The notes below the pieces were generated by a model that saw only the letters and a list, made by a program, of their open reading frames with translations, ran no database searches and was not told the DNA's origin. From the IMG/VR virus record IMGVR_UViG_3300045999_002215, positions 1 to 58,591 of that record: a stretch of DNA of 58,591 nucleotides; one strand, given 5' to 3'. A program made the position numbers and the translations under genes. This document shows positions 8,278 through 58,591 of the stretch, in pieces (the first letter of the stretch is position 1; the number at the start of each line of letters is the position of its first letter). The stretch comes from a virus (lineage: Duplodnaviria > Caudoviricetes).

Positions 8278-10692
8278 ATGACCGACGTACCTAGCAACCT
8301 GATCCCGACTCGCGTCACGCAGCTTCCCGTCGCCCCGGTGGCCGATGAAAACTCGCTGATGATGATCGTCTACCAGGGCAACAACTACCAGATCCGGGTA
8401 GGTGACCTGTTGAGCGTGGCGGGTGTGCCGACTTCTCGGCAGGTGATTGCGGGCACCGGGCTGACCGGCGGCGGGCAACTGTCGTCAAACGTCACGCTGT
8501 CTATTGCCCCCGGCGGGGTAGGCTCTACTCAACTCGCCTCGTCAGGTGTGACGCCTGGGTCCTACGGCACCTCAACCGACATCCCGGTCTTCACTGTAGA
8601 CGTCACGGGCCGCGTCATGGCCGCCACAACGATCCCGGCTTCGGGTGGTGGGGGTGTGCCGACGAGCCGTCAGGTTATCGCGGGCACCGGCCTGAACGGT
8701 GGCGGCGCTCTCACGGGCAACGTCACACTGAACGCGAATCTTTCCAGCTCTACTCCGCTGTCTGTGAACACGAACGGCTCTGCGGGCTCTTCTACTGACA
8801 TTTCCCGCGCCGACCACACGCACCCCGCCATAGACCTTTCTGACGATGATCAGGTTGACAACATCCTCGGCCTAAGCAACGGCGGCACGGCGCGCAGTCT
8901 GGTGCCGAGCGCGGGCGCAATCATTTGGTCCGGTGCTGACGGTTTGTACGTTGGTCCGGTTGGCTCTTCCGGCCAGGTTCTGGTGTCTGGCGGTTCTAGC
9001 GCCCCAAGCTGGGGTTCAGCCCTCATCGTTAGCGACCAAGCTGCTAATGTTGTTTATGCGGGTCCTGTGAGCGGCACGGCTGCTCCCACGACCTTCCGCC
9101 TGCTAGACAACGCTGACATCCCGGCGGCGCTTTCAAGCAAGGCAATCACCGGCAGCACGATCAACAGCACGCCGATCGGCGGCACGACGCCTGCCAGCGG
9201 CGCGTTCACAACTGTTAACGCCACCGACGTAAACGCCACGACCCTTGACGCTACGAACCTTGAAGTCACGAACCTCAAGGCTAAAGACGGCACCGCTGCC
9301 GGTAGCATCGCCAATACGACGGGTGTCGTCACTCTAGGTTCGTCAGTGCTGACGACGGCGGACATTAATGGCGGCACGATTGACGGCACTACCATCGGTG
9401 GGACGACCCCGGCAGCAGTAACCGGAACCCTTGTCACCGCCACGACCCAGTTCTCTGGCCCCGGAACCGGGCTGACGGGAACAGGGTCTTCCTTTACGGC
9501 GGGTGCGGCGACTACCGCAGTCACTGCGACAAACATTGCTGGCGGCGCTGCGGGCTCTATCCCGTATCAGACCGGGTCTGGCGCCACGTCTCTGCTCGCC
9601 ACCGCGTCTGGGGTTCTCGTGGGTGGCTCTACCCCGAGCTACAGCACGGCTCCGGTTTTGACGGGAACCAACTTCACCGGCATTCCGAACGGCGCTCTCA
9701 GCAACAGCTCGCTAACCATCGGCAGCACTCTGGTGTCGCTTGGGGGAACCGCGACCGCGCTGGCGGGCCTCACTTCGGTCACGCTTACTCAAGACCCTTC
9801 CTCCGCTCTGCAGGCTGCGACTAAGCAGTATGTTGACACGCTCGTAGCGAGCGGTATTCACTTCCACCAGCCGGTTCGTGTAGAGTCGCCGGTCAACTTG
9901 AACGCGACGTATAACAACGGCACTGCCGGGGTTGGGGCCACGCTGACCAATGCGGGTGCGCAAGCCGCTCTCGTCATCGACGGTGTGACTGTCGCCACCA
10001 ACGACCGCGTTCTGGTGTACCAGCAGACCACCCAGACCCAGAACGGCATTTACGTTGTCACCAACACTGGCTCAGGCAGCACCAACTGGGTGCTGACTCG
10101 TTCTAGCGACGCCGACACTTACGTCATCAACAGCGCGAACGGTTTGAGCGAAGGTTCTACGGTCTTCGTACAGCAGGGTACGACGGGTGCGGGTGAGACC
10201 TACACCTGCAACACTTCTGGCGTCATCACGTTCGGTACTACGGCAATCACGTTTGCTCAAATTGCCAACACGCAGATTTACTCTGCCGGAACCGGCCTAA
10301 CGCTGTCAGGCACTCAGTTCTCGTTGACCACTCCGGTTTCCCCGACCAATGGCGGCACGGGTATTAGCGGCTACGCGACCGGCGACTTGATCTTCGCCAA
10401 TACGGCGTCTTCGCTTGACCGAATCCCGATCGGCGTCTCTAGCCGTATTCTAACTTCCAACGGGACTTCGCCAGTCTGGACCGACCCGGCCAGCGTCACT
10501 GTTGGTAACGCAACTGCGGCAACCAGCGCGACAACCGCCACTAACCTTGCGGGCGGTGCCGCCAGCCAGATTCCTTATCAAACGGGTTCGGGTGCTACGG
10601 CTTTCTTGGCTAACGGAACGGCGGGGCAAGTGCTGTTGTCTAACGGTTCAAGCGCGCCCAGCTGGAGTGGTCTGGACGGAGGGACGTTCTGA
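8278..10692 (+). CDS. Long tail fibre-like protein
   Basis: 804 aa, G/T/S/A-rich, internal repeats ('VPTSRQVIAGTGL', 'ATN[IL]AGGAA..IPYQTGSGAT'), 'AATKQYVD' fibre motif. Confidence 0.75.
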   Translation: MTDVPSNLIPTRVTQLPVAPVADENSLMMIVYQGNNYQIRVGDLLSVAGVPTSRQVIAGTGLTGGGQLSSNVTLSIAPGGVGSTQLASSGVTPGSYGTSTDIPVFTVDVTGRVMAATTIPASGGGGVPTSRQVIAGTGLNGGGALTGNVTLNANLSSSTPLSVNTNGSAGSSTDISRADHTHPAIDLSDDDQVDNILGLSNGGTARSLVPSAGAIIWSGADGLYVGPVGSSGQVLVSGGSSAPSWGSALIVSDQAANVVYAGPVSGTAAPTTFRLLDNADIPAALSSKAITGSTINSTPIGGTTPASGAFTTVNATDVNATTLDATNLEVTNLKAKDGTAAGSIANTTGVVTLGSSVLTTADINGGTIDGTTIGGTTPAAVTGTLVTATTQFSGPGTGLTGTGSSFTAGAATTAVTATNIAGGAAGSIPYQTGSGATSLLATASGVLVGGSTPSYSTAPVLTGTNFTGIPNGALSNSSLTIGSTLVSLGGTATALAGLTSVTLTQDPSSALQAATKQYVDTLVASGIHFHQPVRVESPVNLNATYNNGTAGVGATLTNAGAQAALVIDGVTVATNDRVLVYQQTTQTQNGIYVVTNTGSGSTNWVLTRSSDADTYVINSANGLSEGSTVFVQQGTTGAGETYTCNTSGVITFGTTAITFAQIANTQIYSAGTGLTLSGTQFSLTTPVSPTNGGTGISGYATGDLIFANTASSLDRIPIGVSSRILTSNGTSPVWTDPASVTVGNATAATSATTATNLAGGAASQIPYQTGSGATAFLANGTAGQVLLSNGSSAPSWSGLDGGTF

Positions 10693-40847: not shown

Positions 40848-41092
40848 CTGCGCCCCCTGTTCCAAGCCAGCCGCGATATTTTGTTCGCCAGATCGTCGAG
40901 CTCCTCAACGCTAATATCGCGATTGTCAAGCAGTGCCGTATAGATCGCCGCCGTCAACCGCTTGCTGGGCAACACCGCCGACCCTTGAATTATCGCAGCT
41001 ACCGCCTCTGACTGCACGTCACGTACCGGCATCAGCCTCTCTTGTTTACGTCCGAATATCATCGTCATTATCTCCTTCAGATAACTGTTCAT
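40844..41092 (-). CDS. Hypothetical protein
   Basis: ATGA-coupled 82-aa ORF. Confidence 0.55.
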   Translation of the reverse strand: MNSYLKEIMTMIFGRKQERLMPVRDVQSEAVAAIIQGSAVLPSKRLTAAIYTALLDNRDISVEELDDLANKISRLAWNRGRR

Positions 41093-43221
41093 AGTCCGTA
41101 TTTGCCCCGCTCGGTCGCCTCCACCACAGCCTCGTTCACACGCAGGTAATGGTTAGCGCGGCCTTGCGGTTTTTCAAGCTCTACCCGCTCTAGCGAGCCG
41201 TCATTGAGCAGCGACTCGATGGCGCGCTCTTTGCGCTCCTGCGAGCATTTGACACCGCCCTTGAGCACCGGGAGCCGTTCGTAGTACGAGCGGGACTTGC
41301 CGGGGTCGCGGCGCACAAGTTCAATCAGGTCGTTGCAGATGCGCGACCACTGCTCTTGCTCCTTCTGTTCCTTGCGGTCTTCCTTAAGCTGCACTCGTTC
41401 TCCGGGCTTGAGCGGGCGAGCCACCGAGTGAGAGAACCAGATCTCTTTGTCGTAGCCCAACACATCCTTATGCACCTGCTTGTTTGACACGAGGTCAAAG
41501 GTAAGCTCTGAGAACTCGACCGGGAAGCGAACCTTGGTTGCCTTGAGCACACGCGGCGCTTCTTGGTCCTCGCCATCTTTGAACACCGTGTACACGCCCT
41601 GCGCGTCACCTGTCCAGGCCGAAGCCCCGCGCGGTGACAAGTAGTCCGACTCGCCGGAGCCGAGCGCCTTGGCGGTGTGGCTGACGATGATGATTGGGAA
41701 CGCGCTGAAAGCCTGCTTTATGTAAGCCATCGCGCGACCAACTTCTGCGTTGTCGTTTTCATTCTCAAGGTCAAACACCGCGTTCGCGGTATCAAACACG
41801 ACCAGCGGGAGAGCCTCATAAGCTGTGCCGTCCGCCTTCTCGTTACCTACCGTCCACTCCTTGTACTCCTCAGCAACCTGCGCGACTATCTTCGGGTCCA
41901 TCCTCTGGGCGCTGATGACGCGAACCCTCTCGTCAAAGTCAGACACGTGCATCCCGGTGTAGCCCCAAGAGTAGAGCGAGTAGATGACGCGCTGAACCTG
42001 CACAACAGACTCAGTGATGATGATAACATTGCGCCGCACTGCGGGCTTGAGAGCGTAGTCGTGCGGGCAGAGGTGCGCTGTGGCAAGGGCCATGGGCACG
42101 ATGAGCGTAGTCTTACCGACACCGGGCGCACCAGCAACCACGTTCACGCCGGTGCTCATAAAGTCGTCGTAGATGTATTCAAAGACCGTGACCTGCCCCG
42201 CGCCGGACAACACTGAACGCTTGAGGCTGAGGGGATGTTCATCGCCGGAGGGTGCGGTCTCCCCGCTGGCAACGGTGGAGGCAGGCGTGTTGCCCGACCA
42301 TCCGTTGTCGATAGCCATGCGGAAGATGCTGCGGTAAGTGATTGAGTGGGGCCGGTCAATGTCGCGCTCCCACTTGCGCCTCTGAGCTGCGGCATCAAAC
42401 TTGTCGCTGGTTGCTGCCCACTCAGTCCAGATCTTGTAACCGTTCTCGCCGTAAGGCTTGAGTACCATGCCCACATTGACCCACGTTGTGTAGTCGTCGG
42501 CGTCTACGTGCTTCAGCGCCGAGCGCAGGTCGTCAAAGGTTTGCGCCGTGGCGACCGGAACACCTCCCCGCTCGGTCAGTGAGTAATTCACCGGAGCTCG
42601 AGCCTTGTCAGCAATCAGAGTGGGCAGCGGAGAGGGTCGCGCCGGTGACGACTGGCTGAGCGGGGAGCGGCCCTGGGCCCAACGGTAGTCGCCCGACGGT
42701 CCCAGCGTGGGCGCAACGCAGATATAACCCTGATGCTTGAGGTCTAGTCCCTTGCCGAGTGTGCCGGGGTAGGTCATCGCCGCGTCAGCCCGGAACAGCC
42801 GGTGCTCTCCTCCGCCCTGCGTGATTGCCGTGCAGTCCGAGTGCAACACCCCGTGCTCAGCTTCTATTGCCGACAGAGACTCCTGTCCGCCGTTCTGCGG
42901 GTCAATGTCTAGCGCCAACAGCCCGGAGTCTGCGAGGCTGATGCCTATGCCCGCCTCGGGGTCCGTGGCCCACCAGTCCCGGATAGTCTGTTCGTTAATG
43001 CTCGCGTCTTGGTGTCCGTGCGGCACAAGGCTTGACTGCGGGTGCTTACCCGGCTTGTGGCCCTTCTCATTATTGGGTCGCCCGCAGCGACACTGACCTT
43101 GTTCGTCAACTGACCATACCGGCAACACGTGCCAGCCGAGCCGCGCATACGCCAGTGCGTAATCGAGAGGCTTGGGCTGTTCGTTTACGGCCCAGATGTG
43201 TTTGGGCGGCTTACTGCTCAT
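41089..43221 (-). CDS. Primase-polymerase (Prim-Pol) + PriCT-2 + RecA-like helicase + C-terminal domain
   Basis: 'LDIDP', 'TQGGGEH', 'DLK..GY'; 'DDYTTWVNVGM.L'; Walker A 'GAPGVGKT', 'VVFDT', 'PRGASAW'. Confidence 0.88.
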   Translation of the reverse strand: MSSKPPKHIWAVNEQPKPLDYALAYARLGWHVLPVWSVDEQGQCRCGRPNNEKGHKPGKHPQSSLVPHGHQDASINEQTIRDWWATDPEAGIGISLADSGLLALDIDPQNGGQESLSAIEAEHGVLHSDCTAITQGGGEHRLFRADAAMTYPGTLGKGLDLKHQGYICVAPTLGPSGDYRWAQGRSPLSQSSPARPSPLPTLIADKARAPVNYSLTERGGVPVATAQTFDDLRSALKHVDADDYTTWVNVGMVLKPYGENGYKIWTEWAATSDKFDAAAQRRKWERDIDRPHSITYRSIFRMAIDNGWSGNTPASTVASGETAPSGDEHPLSLKRSVLSGAGQVTVFEYIYDDFMSTGVNVVAGAPGVGKTTLIVPMALATAHLCPHDYALKPAVRRNVIIITESVVQVQRVIYSLYSWGYTGMHVSDFDERVRVISAQRMDPKIVAQVAEEYKEWTVGNEKADGTAYEALPLVVFDTANAVFDLENENDNAEVGRAMAYIKQAFSAFPIIIVSHTAKALGSGESDYLSPRGASAWTGDAQGVYTVFKDGEDQEAPRVLKATKVRFPVEFSELTFDLVSNKQVHKDVLGYDKEIWFSHSVARPLKPGERVQLKEDRKEQKEQEQWSRICNDLIELVRRDPGKSRSYYERLPVLKGGVKCSQERKERAIESLLNDGSLERVELEKPQGRANHYLRVNEAVVEATERGKYGL

Positions 43222-44759
43222 TGGGTATCTCCAAAGTGCTCCTCAATCACATTCCAATAGCGTCCGGACTTGCGCACTGTGACCGCGTAGGGTTGACGAG
43301 CGCCTTTCATCTGCCACGATAGTGAACGGGCGGGGGAAGGTAGATTTACGGCCAACGCGCGACTGTTGAAGAACTCCAGCGTGGCGCGGTTGGGGGACTC
43401 GGTGTTGATGAACTGAGAGGCGTCGATGCGTGCGCCTTCGGGGGTGGTGCAGGTGTACTGCACGAGCAGCACCGGGGCGTCGGGTGCGCGCCGGGTAGGT
43501 ATCGCCACGCTGTTGACTGCGTGAACCTGAGCGATTATGGCGGAGCCCTCGGTGGCCTCCTTGCCGGTCATGGGGTCGATGGGGGCGAGGGTGCGCACAC
43601 CGGGGTAAATCTTGCGCTCGCGCCGGACGTAAGGCTTACTCGGCACAGCCTCAACTTCAACGCGACCCTGCTCGCGGTAGAACGTCTCGTACATGTCTAC
43701 GCCGCCGAGCCGGATGAGGTTGCCCACGTAGTCAAGCACGAGGCAGTTCTTTTTGCTCGGGTGTAGGCGTGTGCCGCGACCCTGAATCTGAACCCACAGA
43801 GACGATGAAAGCGTGGGGCGGAGGCAAACAATGCAGTCGAGCGCCGGGAAGTCGAAGCCCGTGGTGATCATGTCAACCGAGCACAGGACCCGGACCTCTC
43901 CCGAGCCGAACCGGGCGAACGCTGCGTCGCGCTGGTCTTGGCGGAGACCGCCGTGCAAGACCTCGGTTGTCCAGCCGGTCACATCATTGATGATCTGCGC
44001 TGTGCGCTGAGCTGCGGCCACGGTGGGGCAGTAAACGGCGACGTGGTTGCGCTTCCCGGCCAGAGAGACCATCGACTCAGCCACGGCATGCAACCAGTTC
44101 TCGGTCTGCATCTCTTCTACTTCAGACTGCGTGAAGTCGCCCTGCACTGTGACTTCGTCAACGTCGAGCTGAATGGCCGTCTCAACACCGACCAACGGGC
44201 AGAGCCATCCGTCTGCCACAGCGCGAGGCACAGTGTAGTTGTAGGCGAGCTTGTCGAACCAGAACTGCTCTCCGTCGCCGTAAATGGTTCCGTTGTCCAT
44301 TCGCCAAGGCGTGGCGGTCATAGCTACGCGCTGGGCCTGGGGGTAACGGCGGAGGATCGTCTCGTAGAGCGTGGGTTCACCCTCGTTGTGCGGCACACGG
44401 TGCGCCTCGTCGATGATGACGAGGTCCGGCGCTTTGAGTTCCGGCAGCATACCCATCATGCTCTGGATGGTGCCGAACGTAACCCCGCCGAACGTGTCTT
44501 TGCGGTTCAAACCTGCGCAAACTATGGCGGGTTCCATGCCTGTGTAACGGGTGTATGTGGCCGCGTTCTGACCCACGAGCTGTTGAACGTGCGTGAGAGC
44601 CCAAGCCTGTTTGCCGGCAAGGCGGCAGTGCTCAGCGAGGTCTGCAATGATGAGCGACTTACCCGTGCCGGTGGCAAGCTGCAAAACAGGATTAGCGCCC
44701 CGGCCCAATGATTTTAGGGCGGCGGTGACAGCTTCTTGTTGGTAGGGGCGCAGTTGCAT
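43218..44759 (-). CDS. Superfamily 2 DEAH helicase
   Basis: 'LRPYQ', 'ATGTGKS', 'DEAH', 'TATP', 'TGFDFP', 'QIQGRGTR'. Confidence 0.92.
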   Translation of the reverse strand: MQLRPYQQEAVTAALKSLGRGANPVLQLATGTGKSLIIADLAEHCRLAGKQAWALTHVQQLVGQNAATYTRYTGMEPAIVCAGLNRKDTFGGVTFGTIQSMMGMLPELKAPDLVIIDEAHRVPHNEGEPTLYETILRRYPQAQRVAMTATPWRMDNGTIYGDGEQFWFDKLAYNYTVPRAVADGWLCPLVGVETAIQLDVDEVTVQGDFTQSEVEEMQTENWLHAVAESMVSLAGKRNHVAVYCPTVAAAQRTAQIINDVTGWTTEVLHGGLRQDQRDAAFARFGSGEVRVLCSVDMITTGFDFPALDCIVCLRPTLSSSLWVQIQGRGTRLHPSKKNCLVLDYVGNLIRLGGVDMYETFYREQGRVEVEAVPSKPYVRRERKIYPGVRTLAPIDPMTGKEATEGSAIIAQVHAVNSVAIPTRRAPDAPVLLVQYTCTTPEGARIDASQFINTESPNRATLEFFNSRALAVNLPSPARSLSWQMKGARQPYAVTVRKSGRYWNVIEEHFGDTQ

Positions 44760-44787
44760 ACGGTCTCCAGTTATACGTTATCCGGTG

Positions 44788-44883
44788 ATTATGGGCGCGA
44801 TTTTCTCAAAAGGCAAGCGGAAAAACTTTTTTGGCTTAAAAGCAAAAATAACGCTTGCCTTCCACGTTGAATGAAACTATAGT
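44788..44883. promoter_or_regulatory. Back-to-back divergent promoters
   Basis: - strand TTGCCT(44816-44811)-N17-CATAAT; + strand TTGCCT(44855)-N17-TATAGT; A/T-tract spacer between them. Confidence 0.75.
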
Positions 44884-44933
44884 CATTCCATGGCCCACAG
44901 GGGTCGGATAACTCGATAACTGGAGACACGCAC

Positions 44934-45191
44934 ATGGCCGCTCAAACCTTCGCCCAGATCGCAAACGTAGCTAACGCGCTGCCCGTTGGTCGTCCCGAAG
45001 ACCTCGCTGACCGCGTCAAGTACATGGTTTATTGCGCCGAGCTGAACGCTAACGAAACGATCCACTTGGACAAAGCCGCCAGCGAAGCCGACTTCGACGT
45101 CCTGGCTCTCGCCTCGTTGGAAAGCAACCTCTGCTTCTGCGAAGACTATGAAGTCTGCAAGTGGTTCGCCGAGAACGACGTCGCATTCTGA
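44934..45191 (+). CDS. Early hypothetical protein
   Basis: Preceded by the ATAACTGGAGA RBS motif. Confidence 0.7.
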   Translation: MAAQTFAQIANVANALPVGRPEDLADRVKYMVYCAELNANETIHLDKAASEADFDVLALASLESNLCFCEDYEVCKWFAENDVAF

Positions 45192-45218
45192 ACTTAACCC
45201 GATAACTGGAGAACTGAC

Positions 45219-45446
45219 ATGGCCCTTCGCCAAATCACCATGGACCTCGACAGCCCCTACGTCAAGACCTACAAGACCGAGCAGAACCTGATGAAGCGTA
45301 TTGAAGAAGAACGCGACATGTACCCCGACACCGACGACCGCTTCATAGTCGTGTGCACCCCGAAAGGTCGCTGGACCGCCATCGTGGTCCTTGACAAAGC
45401 GAAGGGCGGGTACATTGGCCGCTACGAATCGTTCATGAAGGTGTGA
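45219..45446 (+). CDS. Early hypothetical protein
   Basis: Preceded by ATAACTGGAGA. Confidence 0.7.
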   Translation: MALRQITMDLDSPYVKTYKTEQNLMKRIEEERDMYPDTDDRFIVVCTPKGRWTAIVVLDKAKGGYIGRYESFMKV

Positions 45447-45516
45447 CCTTCCGGTAACCAGCCCTGCGGGGCTGGCATCCAGAAGGCCAACCCTATAACT
45501 GGAGAAGGAGACTCCC

Positions 45517-45774
45517 ATGGCTTACCGTTTCCCTAAAGCTGGCACCTCTACTGCCAAAATGGTCACCCCGGAGACCCTGGTGCTTCTGGCCAACCCTGGC
45601 CGCGCGCCAACCCTGAGCGAAGCCCGCGCACATGCGCGCAACTGGCTCCGCTCCTCTACCTCGGGAGCCACCGGCCTCTACTCGGTCTGCCTGCTCGCAG
45701 ACGACGACCTCGCGATCGTCTTCTTTGGCATCCGGCGCGCTCAGCGCATCGTCTGGAACTTCGGGAAGGCATGA
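45517..45774 (+). CDS. Early hypothetical protein
   Basis: Preceded by ATAACTGGAGA. Confidence 0.7.
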   Translation: MAYRFPKAGTSTAKMVTPETLVLLANPGRAPTLSEARAHARNWLRSSTSGATGLYSVCLLADDDLAIVFFGIRRAQRIVWNFGKA

Positions 45775-45786
45775 GCCGACCCCTGC

Positions 45787-45837
45787 AGGGGGCGTGGAAA
45801 ATGCCCCCTTTACTTTCTTGAAAGACCGCCCTATACT
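45787..45837 (+). promoter_or_regulatory. Terminator hairpin overlapping promoter TTTACT-N17-TATACT
   Basis: AGGGGGC/GCCCCCT stem whose T-rich tail supplies the -35 box. Confidence 0.55.
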
Positions 45838-45870
45838 CCACTTCAATAACTCGATAACTGGAGAACTCCG

Positions 45871-46770
45871 ATGACTGCATCCACAACCATCAACGACATC
45901 TTCGGCGACCTGCCCGATGACGAGCCGCCGATGCGCTTCAAACTGTCGCGCACTGCTGACGGCGCTACCACCATGCGCCGCGTGTACCGTGAGACCTGCT
46001 CTAAGTGTGGCGGGGACGGCATGTGGCATGGGCACGGTGACTGCACCGGCGACGGACGCTGCACCATGTGTGATGGCGTCGGCTACAAGGTGTTCAAGAC
46101 CTCTCCCGAATCCCGCGCAAAGTCTCGCGACGCTGCCGCTGCAAAGCGCAACGCCAAAGAAACTGAGGTCCGCGCAGCTTACGAGGCTTGGCTGGCCGCT
46201 AACCCGGCAGAAGCCGAGTGGCTGCGTGAAGCCGCTGGTCGTGGTCTTGAGTTCGCCGCGTCTCTCCTCGAGAGCCTGCGCACCTACGGCAGCTTTACCG
46301 AGCGTCAGGAAGTCGCTGTGCGCAATGCTACCGAGCGGTCTCAGGCTCGCAAGGCTGAATGGGCTGCTGAAAAGGCCGCGCGTGAGTCCGCAGCTCCCGC
46401 CGTAGATGCCGCTCGTCTTGAGCAGTCGTTTCTCAAGGCCAAGGCCAACGGCCTGAAATGGCCGCGCATCACCCTGGGCGACATGGTTATCAAGCCCGCC
46501 GGTGACACCAGCAAGAACCCTGGCGCGCTCTACGTCACTGAGTCCGGCCAGTACTTGGGTAAGGTCATGGGTGGTCGGTTCTTCAAGGTCCGCGAATGCG
46601 ACTCCGCGCAGGAAGGCATTGTGGTAAACCTCATCAACGACCCCGTGGGTGCGGCTGAGGCTTACGGTCACCTGACCGGCCACTGCTGCATCTGCAATCG
46701 CGAACTGACCAACCCCGAGTCTGTGGATCGCGGCATCGGACCCATCTGCGCCGACAAGTTCGGCTGGTAA
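45871..46770 (+). CDS. Zn-finger protein with C-terminal DUF6011-like domain
   Basis: CxxCxGxG repeats; 'CCICNRELTNPESVDRGIGPIC'. Confidence 0.75.
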   Translation: MTASTTINDIFGDLPDDEPPMRFKLSRTADGATTMRRVYRETCSKCGGDGMWHGHGDCTGDGRCTMCDGVGYKVFKTSPESRAKSRDAAAAKRNAKETEVRAAYEAWLAANPAEAEWLREAAGRGLEFAASLLESLRTYGSFTERQEVAVRNATERSQARKAEWAAEKAARESAAPAVDAARLEQSFLKAKANGLKWPRITLGDMVIKPAGDTSKNPGALYVTESGQYLGKVMGGRFFKVRECDSAQEGIVVNLINDPVGAAEAYGHLTGHCCICNRELTNPESVDRGIGPICADKFGW

Positions 46771-46784
46771 CAGGAGAACCAAAA

Positions 46785-46889
46785 ATGAAATACCGCATTC
46801 GTGACATCCTCGCTGACCTGATTGCCTGCATCGCAATCTTCGCCATCGGCTACGGGTTGTTCTTCATCGGCCACGGTCTCGGCTGGTGA
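46785..46889 (+). CDS. 34-aa membrane peptide
   Basis: CAGGAGA RBS; MKYRIRDILADLIACIAIFAIGYGLFFIGHGLGW. Confidence 0.55.
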   Translation: MKYRIRDILADLIACIAIFAIGYGLFFIGHGLGW

Positions 46890-50546: not shown

Positions 50547-50712
50547 CATTCGCATCTTCAAGGGCGATGGCAAGCGGGCCGAGGACGTGACCGGGGAGCT
50601 GGGTGATCGGATCAAGGCTCTGGTCTATGAGTATAGTGGGCGAATGCCCCTCGCTGCTGCCGTTGGTGTTCTGCATCTCGTAGCTTACGAAATAATAACG
50701 GACAGCGACTGA
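50539..50712 (+). CDS. Hypothetical protein
   Basis: AAGGAG RBS. Confidence 0.5.
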   Translation: MNDIRIFKGDGKRAEDVTGELGDRIKALVYEYSGRMPLAAAVGVLHLVAYEIITDSD

Positions 50713-50903
50713 TGAAGCCCTGCCCAACTTGCGGTAAACCGCCTTACGTCGAGGTTCACGCGCCGGAATGGTATGAGTTCACCGGCTCATGCCGGATACA
50801 CTGCTGCGGCCACTACGTATGCGCCGACGACATGCGGGACGCCCTGCGCGCGTGGTCCGAGCAGCCCCAACCGCGCTACATAGGGGAGATAACATCGCTA
50901 TGA
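50712..50903 (+). CDS. Small Cys-rich (Lar-like Zn ribbon) protein
   Basis: 'MKPCPTCG', 'CRIHCC', 'A..AW'. Confidence 0.5.
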   Translation: MKPCPTCGKPPYVEVHAPEWYEFTGSCRIHCCGHYVCADDMRDALRAWSEQPQPRYIGEITSL

Positions 50904-51085
50904 CCCGCCCCGCCAGCGACAGCCCCGGTGCCCGCGCTCTACGCGCTGCGGGTTACGTTAAACTACCCGGCTGGTGGGTTACCGAGGAACAGTTCGAGCT
51001 TATCAAATACATGGCAGAAAAGAACCTGCCAGAAGTCAACACTATCAAGGAGAGAGCCTATGATTGGCCGCAGAAGAATTACTAA
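50900..51085 (+). CDS. Hypothetical protein
   Basis: GGAG RBS, ATGA coupling. Confidence 0.5.
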   Translation: MTRPASDSPGARALRAAGYVKLPGWWVTEEQFELIKYMAEKNLPEVNTIKERAYDWPQKNY

Positions 51086-51326
51086 AGACATGCTCGAGGC
51101 AGCAGAACGTAAAGGCTGGAACAGCGCCCAAACCGCGCGGCACTACCAAACCCACAGCGCAGTCATCGACGACGCCTGCGAACGCTTTAGTGTTGTGCTA
51201 CCCGAACACGGCGCAGCACCCGCCCCACCTAAGAAGAAACCCAGCGCCGCGTGGTCTGCGGGTCCCGAGGCCATCAAACGTGCTCTTGAGAAAATGCAAC
51301 CCGCGTCCGGTGGGGCGAAAAGGTAA
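51060..51326 (+). CDS. HTH-like hypothetical protein
   Basis: AAGGAG RBS; 'WNSAQTARHY' segment. Confidence 0.5.
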   Translation: MIGRRRITKDMLEAAERKGWNSAQTARHYQTHSAVIDDACERFSVVLPEHGAAPAPPKKKPSAAWSAGPEAIKRALEKMQPASGGAKR

Positions 51327-51850
51327 TTTCAGGTACACCCTTGTAGCTTTTTGATGCTTGCGTTCGGAGTGAACGTTCGGGACTTACGTTCGAACGTTTA
51401 CCCGAACGTAAGCCCGTCGCTTTTCAACCGGCTTGCTGCGGGTGCCTGTGTTTTTGCGAGCCTCAACCGCGTCCGCAATGCACTTTGGGAGAGTGCGAGA
51501 AGGTAATTTCGGGTATACCCTTGTAGCTTTTCGTGGTTAACGTTCGGAGTTAACGTTCGGAGTGATCGTTCGAACGTTTACCCGAACGTTTACTCCGAAC
51601 GTTTACCCAGCCCGACCAATGCCGAATCGCTCGATCGTCGGAGGAGAGGGACATTCGTCCTCTCTCCGGAGCCGATCAGCAGGTTCACCGAACGTACGTA
51701 AGTGCTTGTTTCTGCTGCGTTGTTTGGAGCTTGTGTTGGTTGCACTTGATGTGTTTCTGGCTTGGATACGTAAGTGCATGTTTTTGTTGGCTTAGTCTTT
51801 GGTCGTTCAGAGTTAACGTTCAGTGGCTCCTCTCGAAGAGAGCGAACGTT
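51315..51850. repeat. Non-coding repeat region, candidate replication origin or pac region
   Basis: Two ~95-bp units 180 bp apart (51315-51409, 51495-51589), about nine AACGTT palindromes, T-rich flank. Confidence 0.7.
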
Positions 51851-51956
51851 CAAATCGACGATTAAAATTTGGGCTTTTCAAAACAGAGAAAATGCTGTAT
51901 AGTGCGGGTTGTGTGAGGTTTGGGCAAACCGGAGCGAACGAGAGAAAGGTTCCAAC

Positions 51957-52310
51957 ATGGAGATATTCAAAGAGGTGTTCCCTCAAGACAGCGACGTGGT
52001 CGTGCGTAAGACGCCCCAAGGGTTGCTGGTGTCTGTGAGGACGCCGAGGCCTCATCCGGTTTGGGCACCTCGTACGCCGTTCAAAGTGGCCGAGGCTGAG
52101 CTTAAAGATTGGCTGCTCGGAGCGGTGCGCTCAGACCCCGGTCGCGGTGCCTCGCATTACGCACGAGTGCCAAAGACTCACGGTGGGCCGGGAGCCTCTC
52201 AAGAGCGTAAAGAGAAGATGCTCAAACAGCTCCAGATCGAGGGGCTCTTGGTCTGCCGTGAAGAGCCAAAGCGCGTGGGTCGTAAACTGGGAGGCCTTTA
52301 CCCAGCATGA
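51957..52310 (+). CDS. Stand-alone paralogue of the primase-helicase C-terminal domain
   Basis: GAAAGG RBS; ungapped similarity to the C-terminus of 41089-43221. Confidence 0.75.
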   Translation: MEIFKEVFPQDSDVVVRKTPQGLLVSVRTPRPHPVWAPRTPFKVAEAELKDWLLGAVRSDPGRGASHYARVPKTHGGPGASQERKEKMLKQLQIEGLLVCREEPKRVGRKLGGLYPA

Positions 52311-52316
52311 CGGGGC

Positions 52317-52345
52317 TTGGCTTTTTGCGGCGGAGGAGCTATAAT
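52317..52345 (+). promoter_or_regulatory. Promoter TTGGCT-N17-TATAAT for terS
   Basis: Consensus -10, ending 7 nt before ATG 52353. Confidence 0.7.
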
Positions 52346-52352
52346 GGGCGGT

Positions 52353-52940
52353 ATGGCCACACAACCCAAACCCCAAGCCAAGACCGGAGCGCCGCGCAAG
52401 TACGACCGCGAGGTGGTGGGGCAGTACGTCTGCTCGCAACTCAAAGCTGGGCGCTCTCTCGACTCCATCTGTAAAGACGAAGGCATGCCGAGCATCTCCT
52501 CGTTCCTTACCTGGGTCGAGGAAGACAGCCCCGAGGGGCTTGCTGAGCACTACGCGCAGGCGCGCAAAATCGGCTACTCCCTGCTCGCCGACGAGATTAT
52601 CGCTCTGTCCGACAAGACGCACGAGTGGGTGACCATTCAGGAGCTCGACGGGGACGGGAAGCCGCTCTTCGACGCCAAAGGCGTACCCCGCCTAAAGCAG
52701 GTGCTACTCCCGCTCAACAGTGACGTCGTTGCGCATAAGCGCGTTCAAATTGACACGCGTAAGTGGATGCTCAGCAAGATGCTGCCGAAGGTATACGGCG
52801 ACAAAGTGACGCAGGAGCACACCGGCGCAGACGGCGGACCCATCGCGGTCGCAGCCGTAGACCTGAAGAACCTCAGCGACGAAGAACTGGAGGCAATGAA
52901 CCGCCTCATGCTCAAGGCGCGAGGTGCTGCTGGTAAATGA
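52353..52940 (+). CDS. terS: Terminase small subunit (Sf6-like)
   Basis: 'GRSLDSICKDEGMPS', 'YAQAR', 'LADEII', 'IDTRKW.LSK..PK.YGDK'. Confidence 0.88.
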   Translation: MATQPKPQAKTGAPRKYDREVVGQYVCSQLKAGRSLDSICKDEGMPSISSFLTWVEEDSPEGLAEHYAQARKIGYSLLADEIIALSDKTHEWVTIQELDGDGKPLFDAKGVPRLKQVLLPLNSDVVAHKRVQIDTRKWMLSKMLPKVYGDKVTQEHTGADGGPIAVAAVDLKNLSDEELEAMNRLMLKARGAAGK

Positions 52941-54508
52941 CCGCTCTGCCCAGCCCCGAGGTGATGTTGGACATGATCCGCAACGAGAAGGAGCGCAGAG
53001 CCGCTTCTGCCTCGTTGTATGAGTTCGTGCGGCAAGCGTGGCATGTGGTGGAGCCTGGCGTCCCGTTCATCCCCTCGTGGCACATCCGGGAGATCTGTGA
53101 GCACCTTGAAGCTGTGAGCGCCGGTGAGATACACCGCCTGCTCGTTAACATCCCGCCTCGCCACTCCAAGTCGACCATCGTCAGCGTCATGTGGCCGATG
53201 TGGGAGTGGCTGACAGACCCTGCTCAGAAGTTTCTGGCCGCGTCCTACTCAGGCAACCTGTCCATTCGTGACAACTTGAAAGCCCGACGCCTCATTCAAT
53301 CGCCCTGGTATCAAGAGCGTTGGGGGCAGATGTTCAAGCTGGCAGGCGACCAGAACGCCAAGCAGCGATTCGAGAACGACAAGACCGGCTACCGGCTCGC
53401 GACGTCGGTGGGTGGTACGGCAACGGGTGAAGGCGGCTCGCGCCTCATCCTGGACGACCCTCACGGCGCGCAGGACGCGCAGTCAGAGGCGATGCGCGAG
53501 TCTGCCCTTGAGTGGTTCGATCAAGTCTGGTCAACCCGACTCAACAACCCGAAGACCGACGCCATGGTCACGGTCATGCAGCGTCTGCACGAGCGGGACA
53601 TTAGCGGGCACATCATCGAGGACATCGGCGGCTGGGAGCACGTCTGCATCCCCGCCGAGTGGGACGGTAAGCGCCGCCATACCGTGCTGGGTCCGTACGA
53701 CCCGCGCAAGAAGATCGGTGAGCTGATTTGCCCCGAGCGGTTCGGTGACAAAGAGATCACCGCTCTCAAGCAGCTGCTCGGCGAGTACGGCACAGCAGGC
53801 CAGCTGCAGCAGGACCCCACCCCGACTGGCGGCGGTATTCTCAAGACCGTTCACTTCCAGCTGTGGCCTGCTGACAAGGGTCTGCCTCAGTTTGAATACA
53901 TCCTCCAGTCCTACGACTGCGCGTTCACCGAGAAGACGACCGGCGACCCCACTGCCTGCTCGGTATGGGCCATCTTCACGCACAACGGCGAGCGCAACGC
54001 GATGCTCATCGACGCGTGGGACGAGCACCTGTCCTACCCAGACCTGCGCACTCGCGCCATCAAGGAGTGGGGCACGGAGTACGGAGGCACCACAGTCAAA
54101 GACGGCATCCGCCGTCCGCGTCGTCCGGACCGCATCCTGGTCGAAGCCAAGGCCAGCGGACAATCGCTGCTGCAAGATTTGCGCTTGGCGAAAGTGCCTG
54201 CCGTCGGCTATAACCCTGGCATGGCCGACAAGGTGAGCCGCGCACACCAAGCCGCGCCGACCTTGGAGCTGGGTCTGTTGTGGGTGCCAGAGAGTGGGAA
54301 GAACCGGGGACAAGCGGTGAGCTGGGCGCAGCCGTTCATCAAGCAGCTGACCAAGTTCCCGGTAGCAGAGCATGACGACTACGTAGACACGTTCACTCAG
54401 GCAATCCTGTTCCTGAAGAACGACGGATGGTTTGAACTGCCGCAGGCTCGCGACCGTGATGAGCCCAAGCAGTATAAGCGCGAGAGGGTGAACCCATATG
54501 CCGTCTAA
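52937..54508 (+). CDS. terL: Terminase large subunit
   Basis: 'NIPPRHSKS', Walker B 'LILDDPH', 'MQRLH', nuclease 'SYDCA', 'HDDYVD'. Confidence 0.93.
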   Translation: MTALPSPEVMLDMIRNEKERRAASASLYEFVRQAWHVVEPGVPFIPSWHIREICEHLEAVSAGEIHRLLVNIPPRHSKSTIVSVMWPMWEWLTDPAQKFLAASYSGNLSIRDNLKARRLIQSPWYQERWGQMFKLAGDQNAKQRFENDKTGYRLATSVGGTATGEGGSRLILDDPHGAQDAQSEAMRESALEWFDQVWSTRLNNPKTDAMVTVMQRLHERDISGHIIEDIGGWEHVCIPAEWDGKRRHTVLGPYDPRKKIGELICPERFGDKEITALKQLLGEYGTAGQLQQDPTPTGGGILKTVHFQLWPADKGLPQFEYILQSYDCAFTEKTTGDPTACSVWAIFTHNGERNAMLIDAWDEHLSYPDLRTRAIKEWGTEYGGTTVKDGIRRPRRPDRILVEAKASGQSLLQDLRLAKVPAVGYNPGMADKVSRAHQAAPTLELGLLWVPESGKNRGQAVSWAQPFIKQLTKFPVAEHDDYVDTFTQAILFLKNDGWFELPQARDRDEPKQYKRERVNPYAV

Positions 54509-54665: not shown

Positions 54666-57223
54666 TCGACAAGGACAGCCTGCCCCTTGACAAGCCGCGA
54701 CGCACACCCGACCACCCGACCAAGTCGCACGTGGTTAAGACGCGCGTCGACGGCAAAGAGAAGATCATTCGCTTCGGGGAGCAGGGTGCCAGCACGGCAG
54801 GTAAGCCCAAGGCTGGCGAGTCCGACCGCATGAAGCAGAAGCGCGCCTCGTTCAAGGCTCGCCACGCAAAGAACATCGCCAAGGGTAAGAGCAGCCCTGC
54901 CTACTGGGCCAACAAGGTCAAGTGGAAGACTGGGGGCGCGGTGGGGCTTGAGGCACTGGACGAGAAGTACGAGGGCATCAAGAAGCCCGACTTCGCGCTG
55001 CTTGACTCATTCAAAGATCTCATCAGGACGCTGCAGAGCAAAGCTGCAGACGCTGGTGAACAAGAGTTTGACGCGGTGCGCGCGCTAGGGCGTAGCGGTG
55101 CCGGGAGCAGCTTGGAAGATCTTTACGAGACTTACACTGGGGAGACCGCGCCACACGCAGCAAGAGCTGAGGCAAAGGGCAACGTCAACCCTGACCGCGC
55201 CAAGTCGGCTAAGATGGTGTTTGACTCTTTCAAGAACGCTGGGTTCTCCGACGCTCAAGCTCGTGCGCTTACGGCTGAGATCAACCGCGAGAACGTCTTC
55301 AACCCGAAGTACCTGTACGGCACGCACACCGACGCCGCAAACCGCGCAACCAACGTGGGTATGCTGAGCTGGCAGGGTGGCCGGGCCAATCGCCTGCTCT
55401 CGTTCATGGCTGACCGAGGGTTGGTTGACGCTGCCGGGGGTATTCTGCCGGGGCAGGACGCCTTGAACGCGCAGGCTGAGTACCTGCGTTGGGAGATGGA
55501 GAACGATCCGAGCTACGCCAAGACCCGTGAGACGTTCTTGAGCAACCCTGACATCGACTCGGCCACAGCTCACGACATCTTAGGCAAGAACTTCATCCGC
55601 TGGCGCATTGATGACCCCAAGTATCGGGGTAGCGGCTTTGAGCGCATCGGCGAAGGCTATGACATCCTCAACATGGCTCAAGGCTACAAAGAGGGTGGCA
55701 AGGTCAAGAAGGATGAGCTGGCCGAGGCTGAGCGTCTGCGCGACCTTCAGCTGATGGCTGAGGAGCAGAACCCCAACGCTGTCGCACCGCGCAAGCCGAG
55801 CATTGCCGACCTGCCCGGAGGCATCTCCGAGCGTCTGGCGCTGATCAACAAGTACCTTAACCCGGTTGAAGCGATCGGCGAATCTATGCGCGCTGGGTCT
55901 CGTTTGACGTCTGCGGATGCGTCTGGGTACGACCGCTTGGCTGCCTTGGGCGACATGCTCTCGGGCGTCGCTGGTGTTGCTGGCCCTGCAGCCATTGCCA
56001 AGCGTGTGGGCGCACCAGCTGCCACGGCTCTGATGGAAAGCCTGCTCGGGGCATCGCCCACCAGCGAGGCTGTGGCCGACATGGCTCGCAAGTATGCCGT
56101 CGATGAGTATGGCGGCGTGCCTGTCGGAAGAGGTGCGGGTCTTGATGTATCACGACGTGACGCATCAAACATTTTTGGTGAAGGCTCTGAGCGGGTCAGA
56201 TACACCGATCCGCGAAGCGGCGGCACCATTGAGGTTGTCGTGCGACCAGATGGCAGCGCATCGGTCCTTGAGTTGGAGGTGCCAGAGGCATCTCGCGGCC
56301 AAGGCATAGGCCAGGCGCTGCAAGAGCGCGTGATGCAAGACTTCCCGGTAATGGGCGGTCAGGTGTCGTCCAAAGCAGCAGCAACGACAGCATATCGCCT
56401 TGGGCGCAGGCCGCCGGGCAAGCCAGACGCGACCCTTGAAGAAGTATTCGCAGACATCGATGACATGTCATCCGTCAACATGGTTTCTCCAAGAATGCAG
56501 GAGCGACTTGCGCCATCAGCGCCTGCTGCCAACGCAGCACCATTCGGTAAAGACTGGTCGGATGTTTACCACTGGTCCAGATCGCCTGATGACTTCTCGG
56601 AGTTTGACTTGAGCCAGTCGAAGTCGGCCATGAGCCAGCTCGGCCCGCATGTCGGGACGCCGCAAGCTGCCGAGGCACGCTACATGGGCTTTGCAAAGCC
56701 TGAGGGCGTGCCGCCAGCCATGGGCTTCACGCTCCCGATGAAGGCTGACTTGTCCAAGCCGTTCATGAATCCCGCAACTGGAAAACCTTGGACAGAGATG
56801 GAACTAGAGATGTTTATCTCTGACGTGGCGGATGAGAACGGTGTTGAGCGTCGCCTCATCGCGCCGATCATGCGAGAGCGTCTCGCAAAAGAGGGCTACA
56901 CCTCTATACCGTACTTGAACGATGTTGAGGACGCGGGGAGTGTCAGCAACATCATGCTGGCTGATCGTCCGGCAGGCAGCGACGCCGTCTTGCGCTCGCG
57001 CTTTGCCAAGTTTGACCCGGCGATGCGCGCCTCAAAAAACATCAGCGCAGGCGCGGCTGTCGGGGCTGCGGGCCTTGGCGCATCTCAGTACGATCCGGAC
57101 GCAATCGAAGCCCGCGTCAGCAAGGCTGGCAAAAATGAGTTTGCGGCTGGCGGCGCTGTCAAATACGATCCCGCTGCAGTAGACAGCATCATCAACAAAC
57201 TTCGCGAGGTCAATCGTGGCTGA
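54662..57223 (+). CDS. Multidomain polyvalent protein: basic N-domain, tail-lysozyme-like, GNAT-like, ART-like
   Basis: 'GFSDAQARALTAEINRENVFNP..GMLSWQG.R..AQAEYL..EM'; 'LEVPEASRGQGIGQAL'; 'VYH..FSEFD..L.KEGY..I.Y.N..E..LRSRFAKFDP'. Confidence 0.6.
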   Translation: MIDKDSLPLDKPRRTPDHPTKSHVVKTRVDGKEKIIRFGEQGASTAGKPKAGESDRMKQKRASFKARHAKNIAKGKSSPAYWANKVKWKTGGAVGLEALDEKYEGIKKPDFALLDSFKDLIRTLQSKAADAGEQEFDAVRALGRSGAGSSLEDLYETYTGETAPHAARAEAKGNVNPDRAKSAKMVFDSFKNAGFSDAQARALTAEINRENVFNPKYLYGTHTDAANRATNVGMLSWQGGRANRLLSFMADRGLVDAAGGILPGQDALNAQAEYLRWEMENDPSYAKTRETFLSNPDIDSATAHDILGKNFIRWRIDDPKYRGSGFERIGEGYDILNMAQGYKEGGKVKKDELAEAERLRDLQLMAEEQNPNAVAPRKPSIADLPGGISERLALINKYLNPVEAIGESMRAGSRLTSADASGYDRLAALGDMLSGVAGVAGPAAIAKRVGAPAATALMESLLGASPTSEAVADMARKYAVDEYGGVPVGRGAGLDVSRRDASNIFGEGSERVRYTDPRSGGTIEVVVRPDGSASVLELEVPEASRGQGIGQALQERVMQDFPVMGGQVSSKAAATTAYRLGRRPPGKPDATLEEVFADIDDMSSVNMVSPRMQERLAPSAPAANAAPFGKDWSDVYHWSRSPDDFSEFDLSQSKSAMSQLGPHVGTPQAAEARYMGFAKPEGVPPAMGFTLPMKADLSKPFMNPATGKPWTEMELEMFISDVADENGVERRLIAPIMRERLAKEGYTSIPYLNDVEDAGSVSNIMLADRPAGSDAVLRSRFAKFDPAMRASKNISAGAAVGAAGLGASQYDPDAIEARVSKAGKNEFAAGGAVKYDPAAVDSIINKLREVNRG

Positions 57224-58591
57224 TATGGATGAAAACGACGACCTGCTTGAAGGCGAGATGGTCGAGCTGATGGACGAGACCTCCGAGGTCGAGGACACCG
57301 AGGACGGTGGCGCTATCATTCGTCTTGAGAACGAAGAGGACGAGCGCAAGAGCCTTGAGCACTTCGCCAACATCGTTGACGAGGTTGACCCCACGCAGCT
57401 CAAGACGGCTGTTCAAGACCTGCTTGAGAAGATCGACCGCGACAAAGAAGCTCGCGAAAAGCGCGACAAGCTCTACGAGGAAGGCTTGCGCCGCACCGGC
57501 CTAGGCGACGACGCTCCCGGTGGCGCGCAGTTCAACGGCGCGAACAAGGTCGTACACCCGATGCTGGTTGAGGCATGTGTTGACTTCTCCGCACGGTTCA
57601 TGAAGGAGGTGTTCCCTCCTACCGGCCCCGTCAAGAGCAAGATCTACGGCGAGTCGGACAAGGCCAAGGTAGAGAAGGCTCAGCGCAAGACCACGTTCAT
57701 GAACTGGCAGGCCACTGAGCAGATGACCGAGTTCCGTGGTGAGCTTGAGCAGCTCAGCACCCAGCTACCCCTCGGCGGTGGCCAGTACATGAAGTTCATG
57801 TGGAACCCGCAGCACCGTCGTCCGTGCAGCGAGTTCATCCCGATCGACGACGTGTACCTGCCGTTCGCCGCGACGAACTTCTACACCGCCGAGCGCAAGA
57901 CGCACGTTCAGTACATCACCAAGATGGAGTATCAGAAGCGCGTCAAGTCGGGCATGTACCGCGACGTTGACATCGGCATGCCTGAAGACCCGGACTTCAG
58001 CAAGGCCAGCCAAGCCAACGACAAGATTGAAGGCCGCAAGGCGACCAGCTACAACGAGGACGGTCTGCGTACCGTCTTTGAGGTCTACACCTACCTTGAG
58101 TTTGATGACGGCGAACTGAGCCCGTACATCCTGAGCGTTGACAAGTCGAGCGGTCAGGCGCTGTCGCTTTACCGCAACTGGGAACCCGAGGACACGTACC
58201 GCAAGGAACTTGACTGGATTGTTGAGTTCCCGTTCGTGCCGTGGCGCGGGGCATACCCGATCGGCCTGACGCACATGATCGGCGGTCTGAGCGGTGCGGC
58301 CACTGGCGCACTCCGCGCGCTGATGGACTCCGCTCACATTCAGAACATGCCCACCCTGCTCAAGCTGAAGGGCGGGCCTAACGGCCAAACAATCAACCTG
58401 CAGCCGACCGAGGTCGTAGAGATGGAGGGTGGCGCGCTGATCGACGACGTGCGCAAGCTCGCTATGCCTATGCCGTTCAACCCGCCGAGCCCGGTGCTGT
58501 TCCAGCTCTTGGGCTTCTTAGTTGACGCGGGTAAGGGTGTGGTGCAGACCTCGTTTGAGAAGCTGTCGGACCAGAACCCCAACCAGCCGGT
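57216..58591 (+). CDS. Portal protein, N-terminal part (open at the window end, joins 1-1247)
   Basis: GAGGT RBS before GTG 57216; 'HPMLVEACVDF', 'FPPTGPVK', 'YPIGLTHMIGGL'. Absent from the ORF track because there is no stop in the window. Confidence 0.85.
   Translation, partial: MADMDENDDLLEGEMVELMDETSEVEDTEDGGAIIRLENEEDERKSLEHFANIVDEVDPTQLKTAVQDLLEKIDRDKEAREKRDKLYEEGLRRTGLGDDAPGGAQFNGANKVVHPMLVEACVDFSARFMKEVFPPTGPVKSKIYGESDKAKVEKAQRKTTFMNWQATEQMTEFRGELEQLSTQLPLGGGQYMKFMWNPQHRRPCSEFIPIDDVYLPFAATNFYTAERKTHVQYITKMEYQKRVKSGMYRDVDIGMPEDPDFSKASQANDKIEGRKATSYNEDGLRTVFEVYTYLEFDDGELSPYILSVDKSSGQALSLYRNWEPEDTYRKELDWIVEFPFVPWRGAYPIGLTHMIGGLSGAATGALRALMDSAHIQNMPTLLKLKGGPNGQTINLQPTEVVEMEGGALIDDVRKLAMPMPFNPPSPVLFQLLGFLVDAGKGVVQTSFEKLSDQNPNQP
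58466..58591. repeat. Terminal overlap, identical to 2-127
   Basis: Direct sequence comparison. Confidence 0.95.

Follow-up and report, generated by a model that had tools for sequence, protein, structure and literature searches.

An optional winged-helix gene in the terminase block of a freshwater tailed phage, paralogous to the C-terminal domain of its primase-helicase

Organisation of the locus

The window analysed here, 58,591 nt long, is an entire virus record of IMG/VR (IMGVR_UViG_3300045999_002215; Duplodnaviria, Caudoviricetes), rated complete, with structural genes on the plus strand and a replication module on the minus strand. By terL, the nearest cultured phage is Roseobacter phage CRP-901, at 46% identity; none of the phage records covers at least 80% of the primase, and metagenomes of lakes and other fresh waters, from 19 studies in all, contain near-identical DNA. 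At both ends (1-1247 and 57216-58591) the record breaks off inside an open frame, so that it is cut within a gene, which fits a circularly permuted or arbitrarily opened assembly and not true ends. The genes and the domain that concern us are the following:

51957..52310, plus strand: small gene, 117 aa, an open frame from the ATG at 51957 to the TGA at 52308-52310
52353..52940, plus strand: terS, Sf6-type small terminase (Sf6_terminase, E 3.6e-28)
52937..54508, plus strand: terL, large terminase
41089..43221, minus strand: gene of a PrimPol / PriCT_2 / AAA_25 primase-helicase, 710 aa
41113..41388, minus strand: paralogous winged-helix domain at the primase C-terminus (about residues 612-703), assigned by sequence and profile matches

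A purine-rich sequence, GAGAGAAAGG, lies 7 nt 5' of the small gene's ATG. For terS, the N-termini of relatives indicate ATG 52353 (MATQ...) as the probable start, with ATG 52344 also possible. The replication module of the window (41089-46836, minus strand) is inverted and about 9 kb from terS, which places the small gene 8.7 kb from the primase gene and on the other strand; the repeats described below remain beside terS. Farther upstream, a 63-aa ORF at 50712-50903 gives a weak, sub-threshold match to the Lar restriction-alleviation family (E 7.9e-4 in Pfam, short of the curated cut-off; E 2.8e-4 for PHROG 599). Contigs from other lake metagenomes are deepest at 50968-51135, where run X5 reaches up to 35 compared with about 6 in the vicinity; loose ends occur there at 51021 and 51082, and many other phages share a short piece of the small ORF at this place.

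The small protein is a winged-helix paralogue of the primase-helicase C-terminus

An earlier note on this DNA, made from the letters alone, had aligned the small protein without gaps to the primase C-terminus. This alignment is recovered by BLASTP, which in a single comparison pairs residues 69-125 of the small protein with residues 632-688 of the primase, gapless, with 25/57 identities, E 1e-9 and the SQERKE stretch intact. A six-frame search of the whole 58,591-nt record finds the second copy at 41158-41331 (minus strand, E 6.8e-9) and no third copy of the domain. At the profile level, an HMM of the small-protein family matches the primase C-terminus at 4e-27, and hhalign of the two family alignments returns a probability of 99.7% and E 2.8e-26 over 83 columns. 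On the strength of these three matches (1e-9, 4e-27 and 2.8e-26), the paralogy is beyond chance. The hhalign match covers the winged helix only, leaving the N-terminal 45 residues of the small protein unaligned; a derivation of its N-terminal β-hairpin as a copy of the last hairpin of the helicase domain was considered and rejected, as hhalign does not align the two.

The winged-helix fold attributed to the small protein by the earlier note is likewise supported by an AlphaFold2 model built from a 39-row alignment (pLDDT 86.7). In this model an N-terminal β-hairpin (residues 13-28) is followed by a weaker linker and then by three helices and a β-hairpin wing, the defining arrangement of the fold: helices at 46-59 and 65-69, the recognition helix at 82-95, which opens with SQERKE, and strands at 98-107 and 110-116, the wing thus spanning 98-116. 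With residues 45-117 as the query, VIA-align matches the DNA-binding winged helices of MecI, SAMD1 (a WH-DNA complex), Nur and BlcR at Z 8.0-8.5 and rmsd 1.7-2.9 Å over 63-69 residues. A wide VIA-align search and one of the ESM Atlas return generic winged helices only. Foldseek against the PDB gives no match at E <= 0.001, its matches being of the PadR/MarR/ArsR types, all at E > 0.01. Further, the profiles of the small protein and of the primase domain hit the sequences of solved structures only by chance (antibody frameworks, Csm2), and the small protein matches no family in Pfam (E up to 1) or PHROG (E up to 0.01). For the primase C-terminal 180 aa, AlphaFold2 with an 8-row alignment reaches a pLDDT of 48, too low for structural comparison, and a complex prediction of the small protein with primase residues 85-180 (alignment A3), which scored 0.00 with controls not run, speaks neither for nor against pairing.

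An exhaustive HMMER search of 1.84 billion cluster representatives defines a small-protein family of 38 representatives at E <= 0.001, 17 of them at <= 1e-10; these are mostly 115-140 aa long and their alignment begins at the first residue. A word-indexed search yielded three relatives among 18 candidates, and tblastn against 50,697 phage records gave no match. One of the 38 (P0036) is placed by the tree described below as a primase fragment, and tandem winged helices with a degenerate first copy occur in four representatives and four loci. Inspection of the family alignment shows that P61, G62 and Y68 are invariant and that G76, G77, R84, K85, G96 and R109 are nearly so. The first three positions of the recognition helix vary (SQE, HYE, SRD, LQA and others) ahead of a nearly invariant RKE, a pattern that would be expected of residues conferring specificity. 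Scans with three representatives (P0016, P0024, P0027) for the genomic contexts of such variant recognition helices found none. Between the window and its 95% identical relative L003, the small gene carries a single, synonymous change, and the 640 nt preceding it carry 23.

A tree of the 74-column domain, comprising 60 primase domains and the small proteins, unites the 60 primase domains and P0036 in one clade with short branches (SH-aLRT 85). The small proteins fall outside this clade on long branches (0.4-1.0, against 0-0.3 for the primase domains), which indicates that the duplication is old, and the degenerate first copies of the tandem proteins form a clade of their own. The tree gives no instance of a resident primase domain recently copied into a small gene. 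The small proteins evolve fast, without sign of re-copying from the resident primase. Taken together, these results make the ORF at 51957..52310 a genuine gene, whose product is a winged-helix paralogue of the initiator's C-terminal domain.

Gene neighbourhood and distribution in relatives

Loci of relatives were gathered by terL, by the primase C-terminus, by the small protein and by a metagenome scan, and were passed through one annotation pipeline; distributions were counted over the 86 distinct loci that contain terS together with 700 nt or more of the DNA preceding it. The small gene is present in nine of these. It is missing, and not degraded, in the other 77; absence from relatives is a condition that the earlier note had named as refuting its proposal. 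Its position between the repeats and terS, by contrast, recurs in every relative that has the gene: it lies directly 5' of terS in all ten contexts with the downstream gene visible (the window, L003, L004, L005, L006, L032, L108, L110, L122 and L135), at a distance ranging from a 4-nt overlap to a 42-nt gap, with the repeats and a stem-loop preceding it and its frame intact in every one. An eleventh copy, in L165, is on a contig that ends before any terS. Hence, the small gene is an optional module, the first gene of the terS-terL block.

In 49 of the 86 relatives the primase gene precedes terS on the strand that terS occupies and ends 132-4038 nt ahead of it; six of these have both genes and 43 the primase only. 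These counts give the usual order as primase, none to a few small genes, repeats and stem-loop, the optional small gene, terS and terL. A scan of metagenome contigs added 43 loci, 42 with only the primase C-terminus and one (L165) with the small gene as well; a scan of genome contigs gave one match, a primase-type copy on a MAG contig. One X7 contig joins 51695 to 52395 with sides of 20 nt and probably represents a relative lacking the small gene, on weak evidence. As for the terminase genes themselves, terL is 81-93% identical across 80 relatives, and terS carries at least three unrelated types of N-terminal domain on a conserved C-terminal part (loci L008-L086); this variation is classic mosaic exchange.

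The cis region upstream of terS

The region between the upstream ORFs and terS contains the following elements:

51361..51415: repeat array 1, GTGAACGTTCGG / CGAACGTTTACC units at 13-nt spacing, forward then inverted around ACGTTCGAACGT
51528..51608: repeat array 2, with three units forward and three inverted (GTTAACGTTCGG / CCGAACGTTTAC)
51633..51680, plus strand: conserved stem-loop, with a core GGAGGAGAGGGAC-ATTC-GTCCTCTCTCCG at 51640-51668 and an outer GATCG/CGATC stem
51804..51852: another pair of units, AGAGTTAACGTTCA and AGAGCGAACGTTCA, at a distance of 30 nt, on either side of a short CTCTC-GAA-GAGAG hairpin, 23 nt 5' of the promoter-like site
51875..51903, plus strand: sigma-70-like promoter candidate for the small gene, TTTTCA-17-TATAGT, 9/12, a consensus match only
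52317..52345, plus strand: sigma-70-like promoter candidate between the small gene and terS, TTGGCT-17-TATAAT, 10/12, a consensus match only

As repeats, the iterons of the earlier note are real. The two arrays belong to a tandem duplication with 95-nt copies (51315-51409 and 51495-51589, 83% identical, 180 nt apart), and their six and four copies, in both orientations at 13-nt spacing, are regularly repeated units in the sense of iterons. All eight matches to AACGTTCG in the window fall within 51372-51850, against 2.3 expected over the whole window. The 180-nt tandem duplication also takes in the 3' end of the ORF at 50928..51326 along with one whole repeat array. Relatives have comparable arrays of 12-13-nt units 5' of terS or the small gene, at 13-nt spacing and running forward then inverted around a central palindrome, and they additionally share the stem-loop core GGAGGAGAGGG...CCTCTCTCC, further units and a TTGnCT-17-TATAAT element.

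The stem-loop shows compensatory changes at seven of its 15 predicted pairs across 21 distinct aligned variants, with its G-U pairs falling on the plus strand. Its strict pattern is present in 24 of the 85 sequences of the first batch, examples upstream of terS being L054 8466-8494, L007 3503-3531 and L032 2222-2250. No T-run follows it, and Rfam returns nothing for it, the only match being a sub-threshold one of mir-629 to the inverted repeat array. The stem-loop could be an origin element of the kind proposed for pRN1 and BIP-1, or an RNA 3'-end or processing element. Because of that proposal and of the binding of origin repeats by P4 alpha (PMC4234260; see below), an origin is the most natural reading of the region, and its fixed place beside the terS promoter candidate also allows a role in late transcription. 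The stem-loop with flanking repeats beside terS is an undescribed cis element.

An element matching the promoter candidate at 52317..52345 also precedes terS in relatives lacking the small gene. The ATG of terS (MAT...) stands 7 nt after the TATAAT in the window (52340-52355), in L007 (about 3668-3685) and in L080 (about 9385-9401). This suggests a leaderless or very short-leader terS mRNA, made from a candidate promoter that persisted despite the insertion of the small gene upstream. A 23-nt sequence occurs twice between the stem-loop and the promoter candidate of the small gene (51695-51717 and 51767-51789; 87% identical, 72 nt apart), and no such duplicate was seen in the relatives read.

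Candidate readers of the repeats

At least three copies of ATCGTTCG are found in 44 of the 51 distinct loci whose primase has an SQ(E/D)R(K/R)E recognition helix and in none of the five whose primase helix begins with GRD, SRD, SDE or AQE. The notion that the primase domain reads the canonical units gains from this comparison, but it is weakened by the seven exceptions, which combine a canonical primase helix with other units; four of them (L006, L032, L110 and L122) carry the small gene. The fit between the repeats and the recognition helix of the primase is therefore a loose one.

The link between the small protein and the repeats that the earlier note had drawn stands to the extent that carriers mostly have altered units. 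The canonical repeat set is lacking in six of seven carriers as against six of 53 non-carriers (Fisher p 1.2e-4; 60 distinct loci, window counted), and four carriers have AACGTTCG / ACGTTCGA units in its place. On the primase tree, however, the carriers require seven gains or losses for seven occurrences, and the well-supported, phylogenetically independent pairs number four, three changing in the same direction, none in the opposite and one unchanged; with only four pairs, the sign test cannot reach significance (p >= 0.25), which is where that claim falls short. Individual loci are instructive in this regard. L032 and L071 do not differ in the primase C-terminus (115 aa) or in the upstream DNA, and divergence begins exactly at the first repeat; from there on L032, unlike L071, shows new units and a variant of the stem-loop, carries the small gene and has a different terS N-domain. 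L108 deviates in three respects at once, namely in its units, in its primase helix (SRDRKE) and in the helix of its small protein (HYERKE). L135, on the other hand, has a tandem version of the small gene with canonical repeats, and L147, L161 and L174 have changed repeats with an SQERKE primase and no small gene, so that repeat change does not require the small gene; units are also changed without it in L046, L063, L031 and L026. The altered repeats of the carriers would point to a private reader rather than to simple competition over one set of sites.

A separate candidate, terS as the reader of the repeats in the manner of a pac site, was rejected on two grounds. First, the canonical unit GTAATCGTTCGG occurs with three unrelated terS N-terminal domains. 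Second, L046 and L063 have near-identical terS proteins (six differences in the 140 residues compared) and an otherwise similar backbone, and their repeat units differ. In these two loci (L046 6990-7400 and L063 340-720) the units are TCGAAAGCCCGG and TCGAATGCGCG, respectively, at every position, the stem-loop shows compensated changes, and an AT-rich stretch lies next to these elements.

Functional implications

The function best supported by these comparisons of sequence and context is most likely the sequence-specific reading of the origin-like and late-promoter region. The comparisons establish the homology, the fold, the gene order, the accessory distribution and the statistical association with altered repeats; DNA binding by the small protein, its target and the direction of its effect are what we infer from them. 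The small gene is a free-standing paralogue, of old origin and fast evolution, of the PrimPol-helicase's C-terminal domain, which is of the origin-binding type, and it appears to be transcribed from the sigma-70-like promoter candidate abutting the repeats and stem-loop. We consider it quite possible, if short of probable, that its product binds the repeats in their own variant form, AACGTTCGG in the window as against GTAATCGTTCGG in most relatives, and that the bound protein takes over or blocks the sites which the primase domain would read in relatives without the gene. As to the consequence, the likely effects are a block to renewed initiation at the origin-like region after the packaging operon has come on, control of the adjacent promoter or promoters, at a slightly lower probability, or both together; taken singly, each of the two has a low probability. 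The putative replication-to-packaging switch of the earlier note, in which the small protein would shut off initiation or hand DNA to terminase, may be one version of this reading. It cannot, however, be a core switch of the phage group, given the absence of the small gene from 77 of the 86 relatives.

If the small protein does read the repeats, these uncultured freshwater phages offer a natural experiment, in which a conserved primase-helicase and terminase occur with and without a detachable initiator DNA-binding domain and matching repeat changes. Two matters could then be put to the test, the means by which tailed phages halt the firing of an origin or time their packaging operon and the way in which relatives exchange origin specificity. 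A more far-reaching proposal, which we hold to be improbable as a whole, would make the small winged helix, together with the rewritten repeats, a portable specificity cassette. In phages that take it up, this would re-address the region to a private reader, uncoupled from the primase domain and from the initiators of relatives, with late-expressed silencing of initiator access at the start of packaging as well as incompatibility or exclusion among lake phages.

The invariable placement of the small gene directly 5' of terS, often with a 4-nt overlap, might instead point to a packaging factor, which would mark the packaging start near terS and recruit the small terminase. Repeats, small gene and terS N-domain would then constitute a packaging-specificity module, as might be read from their exchange as one block between L032 and L071. 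However, the repeat region is also present in the 77 relatives without the small gene, and the sharing of the canonical unit by three unrelated terS N-domains indicates that it is not read by terS; we accordingly regard a packaging factor as improbable.

The paralogy of the two domains permits a further alternative, in which the small winged helix pairs with that of the primase C-terminus and alters its origin binding, with no need of a DNA site of its own. P4 Cnr, acting on the origin-binding domain of alpha, is a precedent, and a primase with the domain is present in all seven carriers with the primase in view (the window, L006, L032, L108, L110, L122 and L135). Such a Cnr-like regulator would predict no association with changed repeats, however. 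Nor would one expect an obligate partner to evolve far faster than the primase domain without following it, as the small proteins do. With the gene additionally placed in the packaging block and not in a replication operon, we think this mode of action quite improbable.

The sporadic distribution of the small gene, with as many gains or losses as occurrences on the primase tree, its fast evolution and its tendency to travel with altered repeats would also be compatible with competition between phages, many closely related members of the group co-occurring in lake metagenomes. A decoy or private reader together with rewritten repeats would then insulate a phage's own region from the initiators of co-infecting relatives, or block theirs. 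This is pure inference, and with L135 keeping canonical repeats it seems to us decidedly unlikely. Finally, that the gene is a neutral leftover, a functionless partial duplication of the primase 3' end, might be read from its position 139-315 nt downstream of the primase gene in L006 and L165 and its dispensability in most relatives, but it is scarcely credible in view of the conserved N-terminal extension absent from the primase, the core residues kept across 38 representatives, the intact frames in 10/10 loci, the old split and the sole change relative to L003 being synonymous.

Comparison with known systems

A limited literature search brought up no description of the small-protein family, of its constant position ahead of terS, of its association with rewritten repeats or of a free-standing initiator domain beside terS; on that search the family, which is without Pfam or PHROG models, is undescribed. 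The earlier note went further in holding that there was no described equivalent, a statement that has to be given up since P4 Cnr and HSV-1 OBPC are analogues. Another comparison is with the RinA- and ArpU-type late-operon regulators, which are encoded just upstream of terS in Gram-positive phages. The small gene is like theirs in specifying a small, here predicted, DNA-binding protein immediately upstream of terS; it differs in that its product matches no Pfam (E up to 1) or PHROG (E up to 0.01) family. Further, it often overlaps terS, so that in those loci there is no room for a regulated promoter between the two.

Cnr of P4 is said, in work by Yeo and colleagues from 2002, to act on the origin-binding domain of alpha, with regulation by homo- and heterodimerisation of winged-helix proteins, and Cnr has itself been modelled as a winged helix. 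One source describes alpha as a primase-helicase with a C-terminal winged helix that binds the origin repeats (PMC4234260), and another describes cnr as controlling copy number (PMC8628076). The phage studied here resembles P4 in that its primase-helicase, too, ends in a winged helix and is accompanied by a small free-standing protein. However, alpha has a Toprim primase and the phage a combination of PrimPol, PriCT_2 and AAA_25; neither of our profiles matches any solved chain, P4-OBD included; and cnr lies in the replication operon upstream of alpha, whereas the small gene lies in the terS-terL block. Additionally, the paralogy between the small protein and the initiator domain is here demonstrable by sequence.

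For pRN1 ORF904 and its counterpart in Bordetella phage BIP-1, PMC4234260 proposes that these proteins, composed of PrimPol, helicase and winged helix, assemble at a stem-loop situated downstream of the gene that encodes them. The domain order is the same here, and BIP-1 also has PriCT_2. A free-standing copy of the winged helix is not described in the part of that paper covered here. pRN1 has no iterons, whereas here repeats at 13-bp spacing flank the stem-loop on both sides. The covarying stem-loop downstream of the primase gene in 49 of the 86 relatives is a further likeness to these systems; the helicase, by contrast, matches AAA_25 and not an SF3 model.

HSV-1 OBPC comprises the DNA-binding C-terminal portion of UL9, the origin-binding protein, and is produced separately with delayed-early timing; it has been proposed to antagonise origin-dependent initiation. 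It is thus likewise a stand-alone DNA-binding portion of a viral initiator-helicase, and it is made later than the initiator. OBPC, however, is specified in frame by the gene of the initiator itself and belongs to a eukaryotic virus, whereas the small protein of this tailed phage has a gene of its own next to terS, a diverged paralogue that includes an N-terminal extension.
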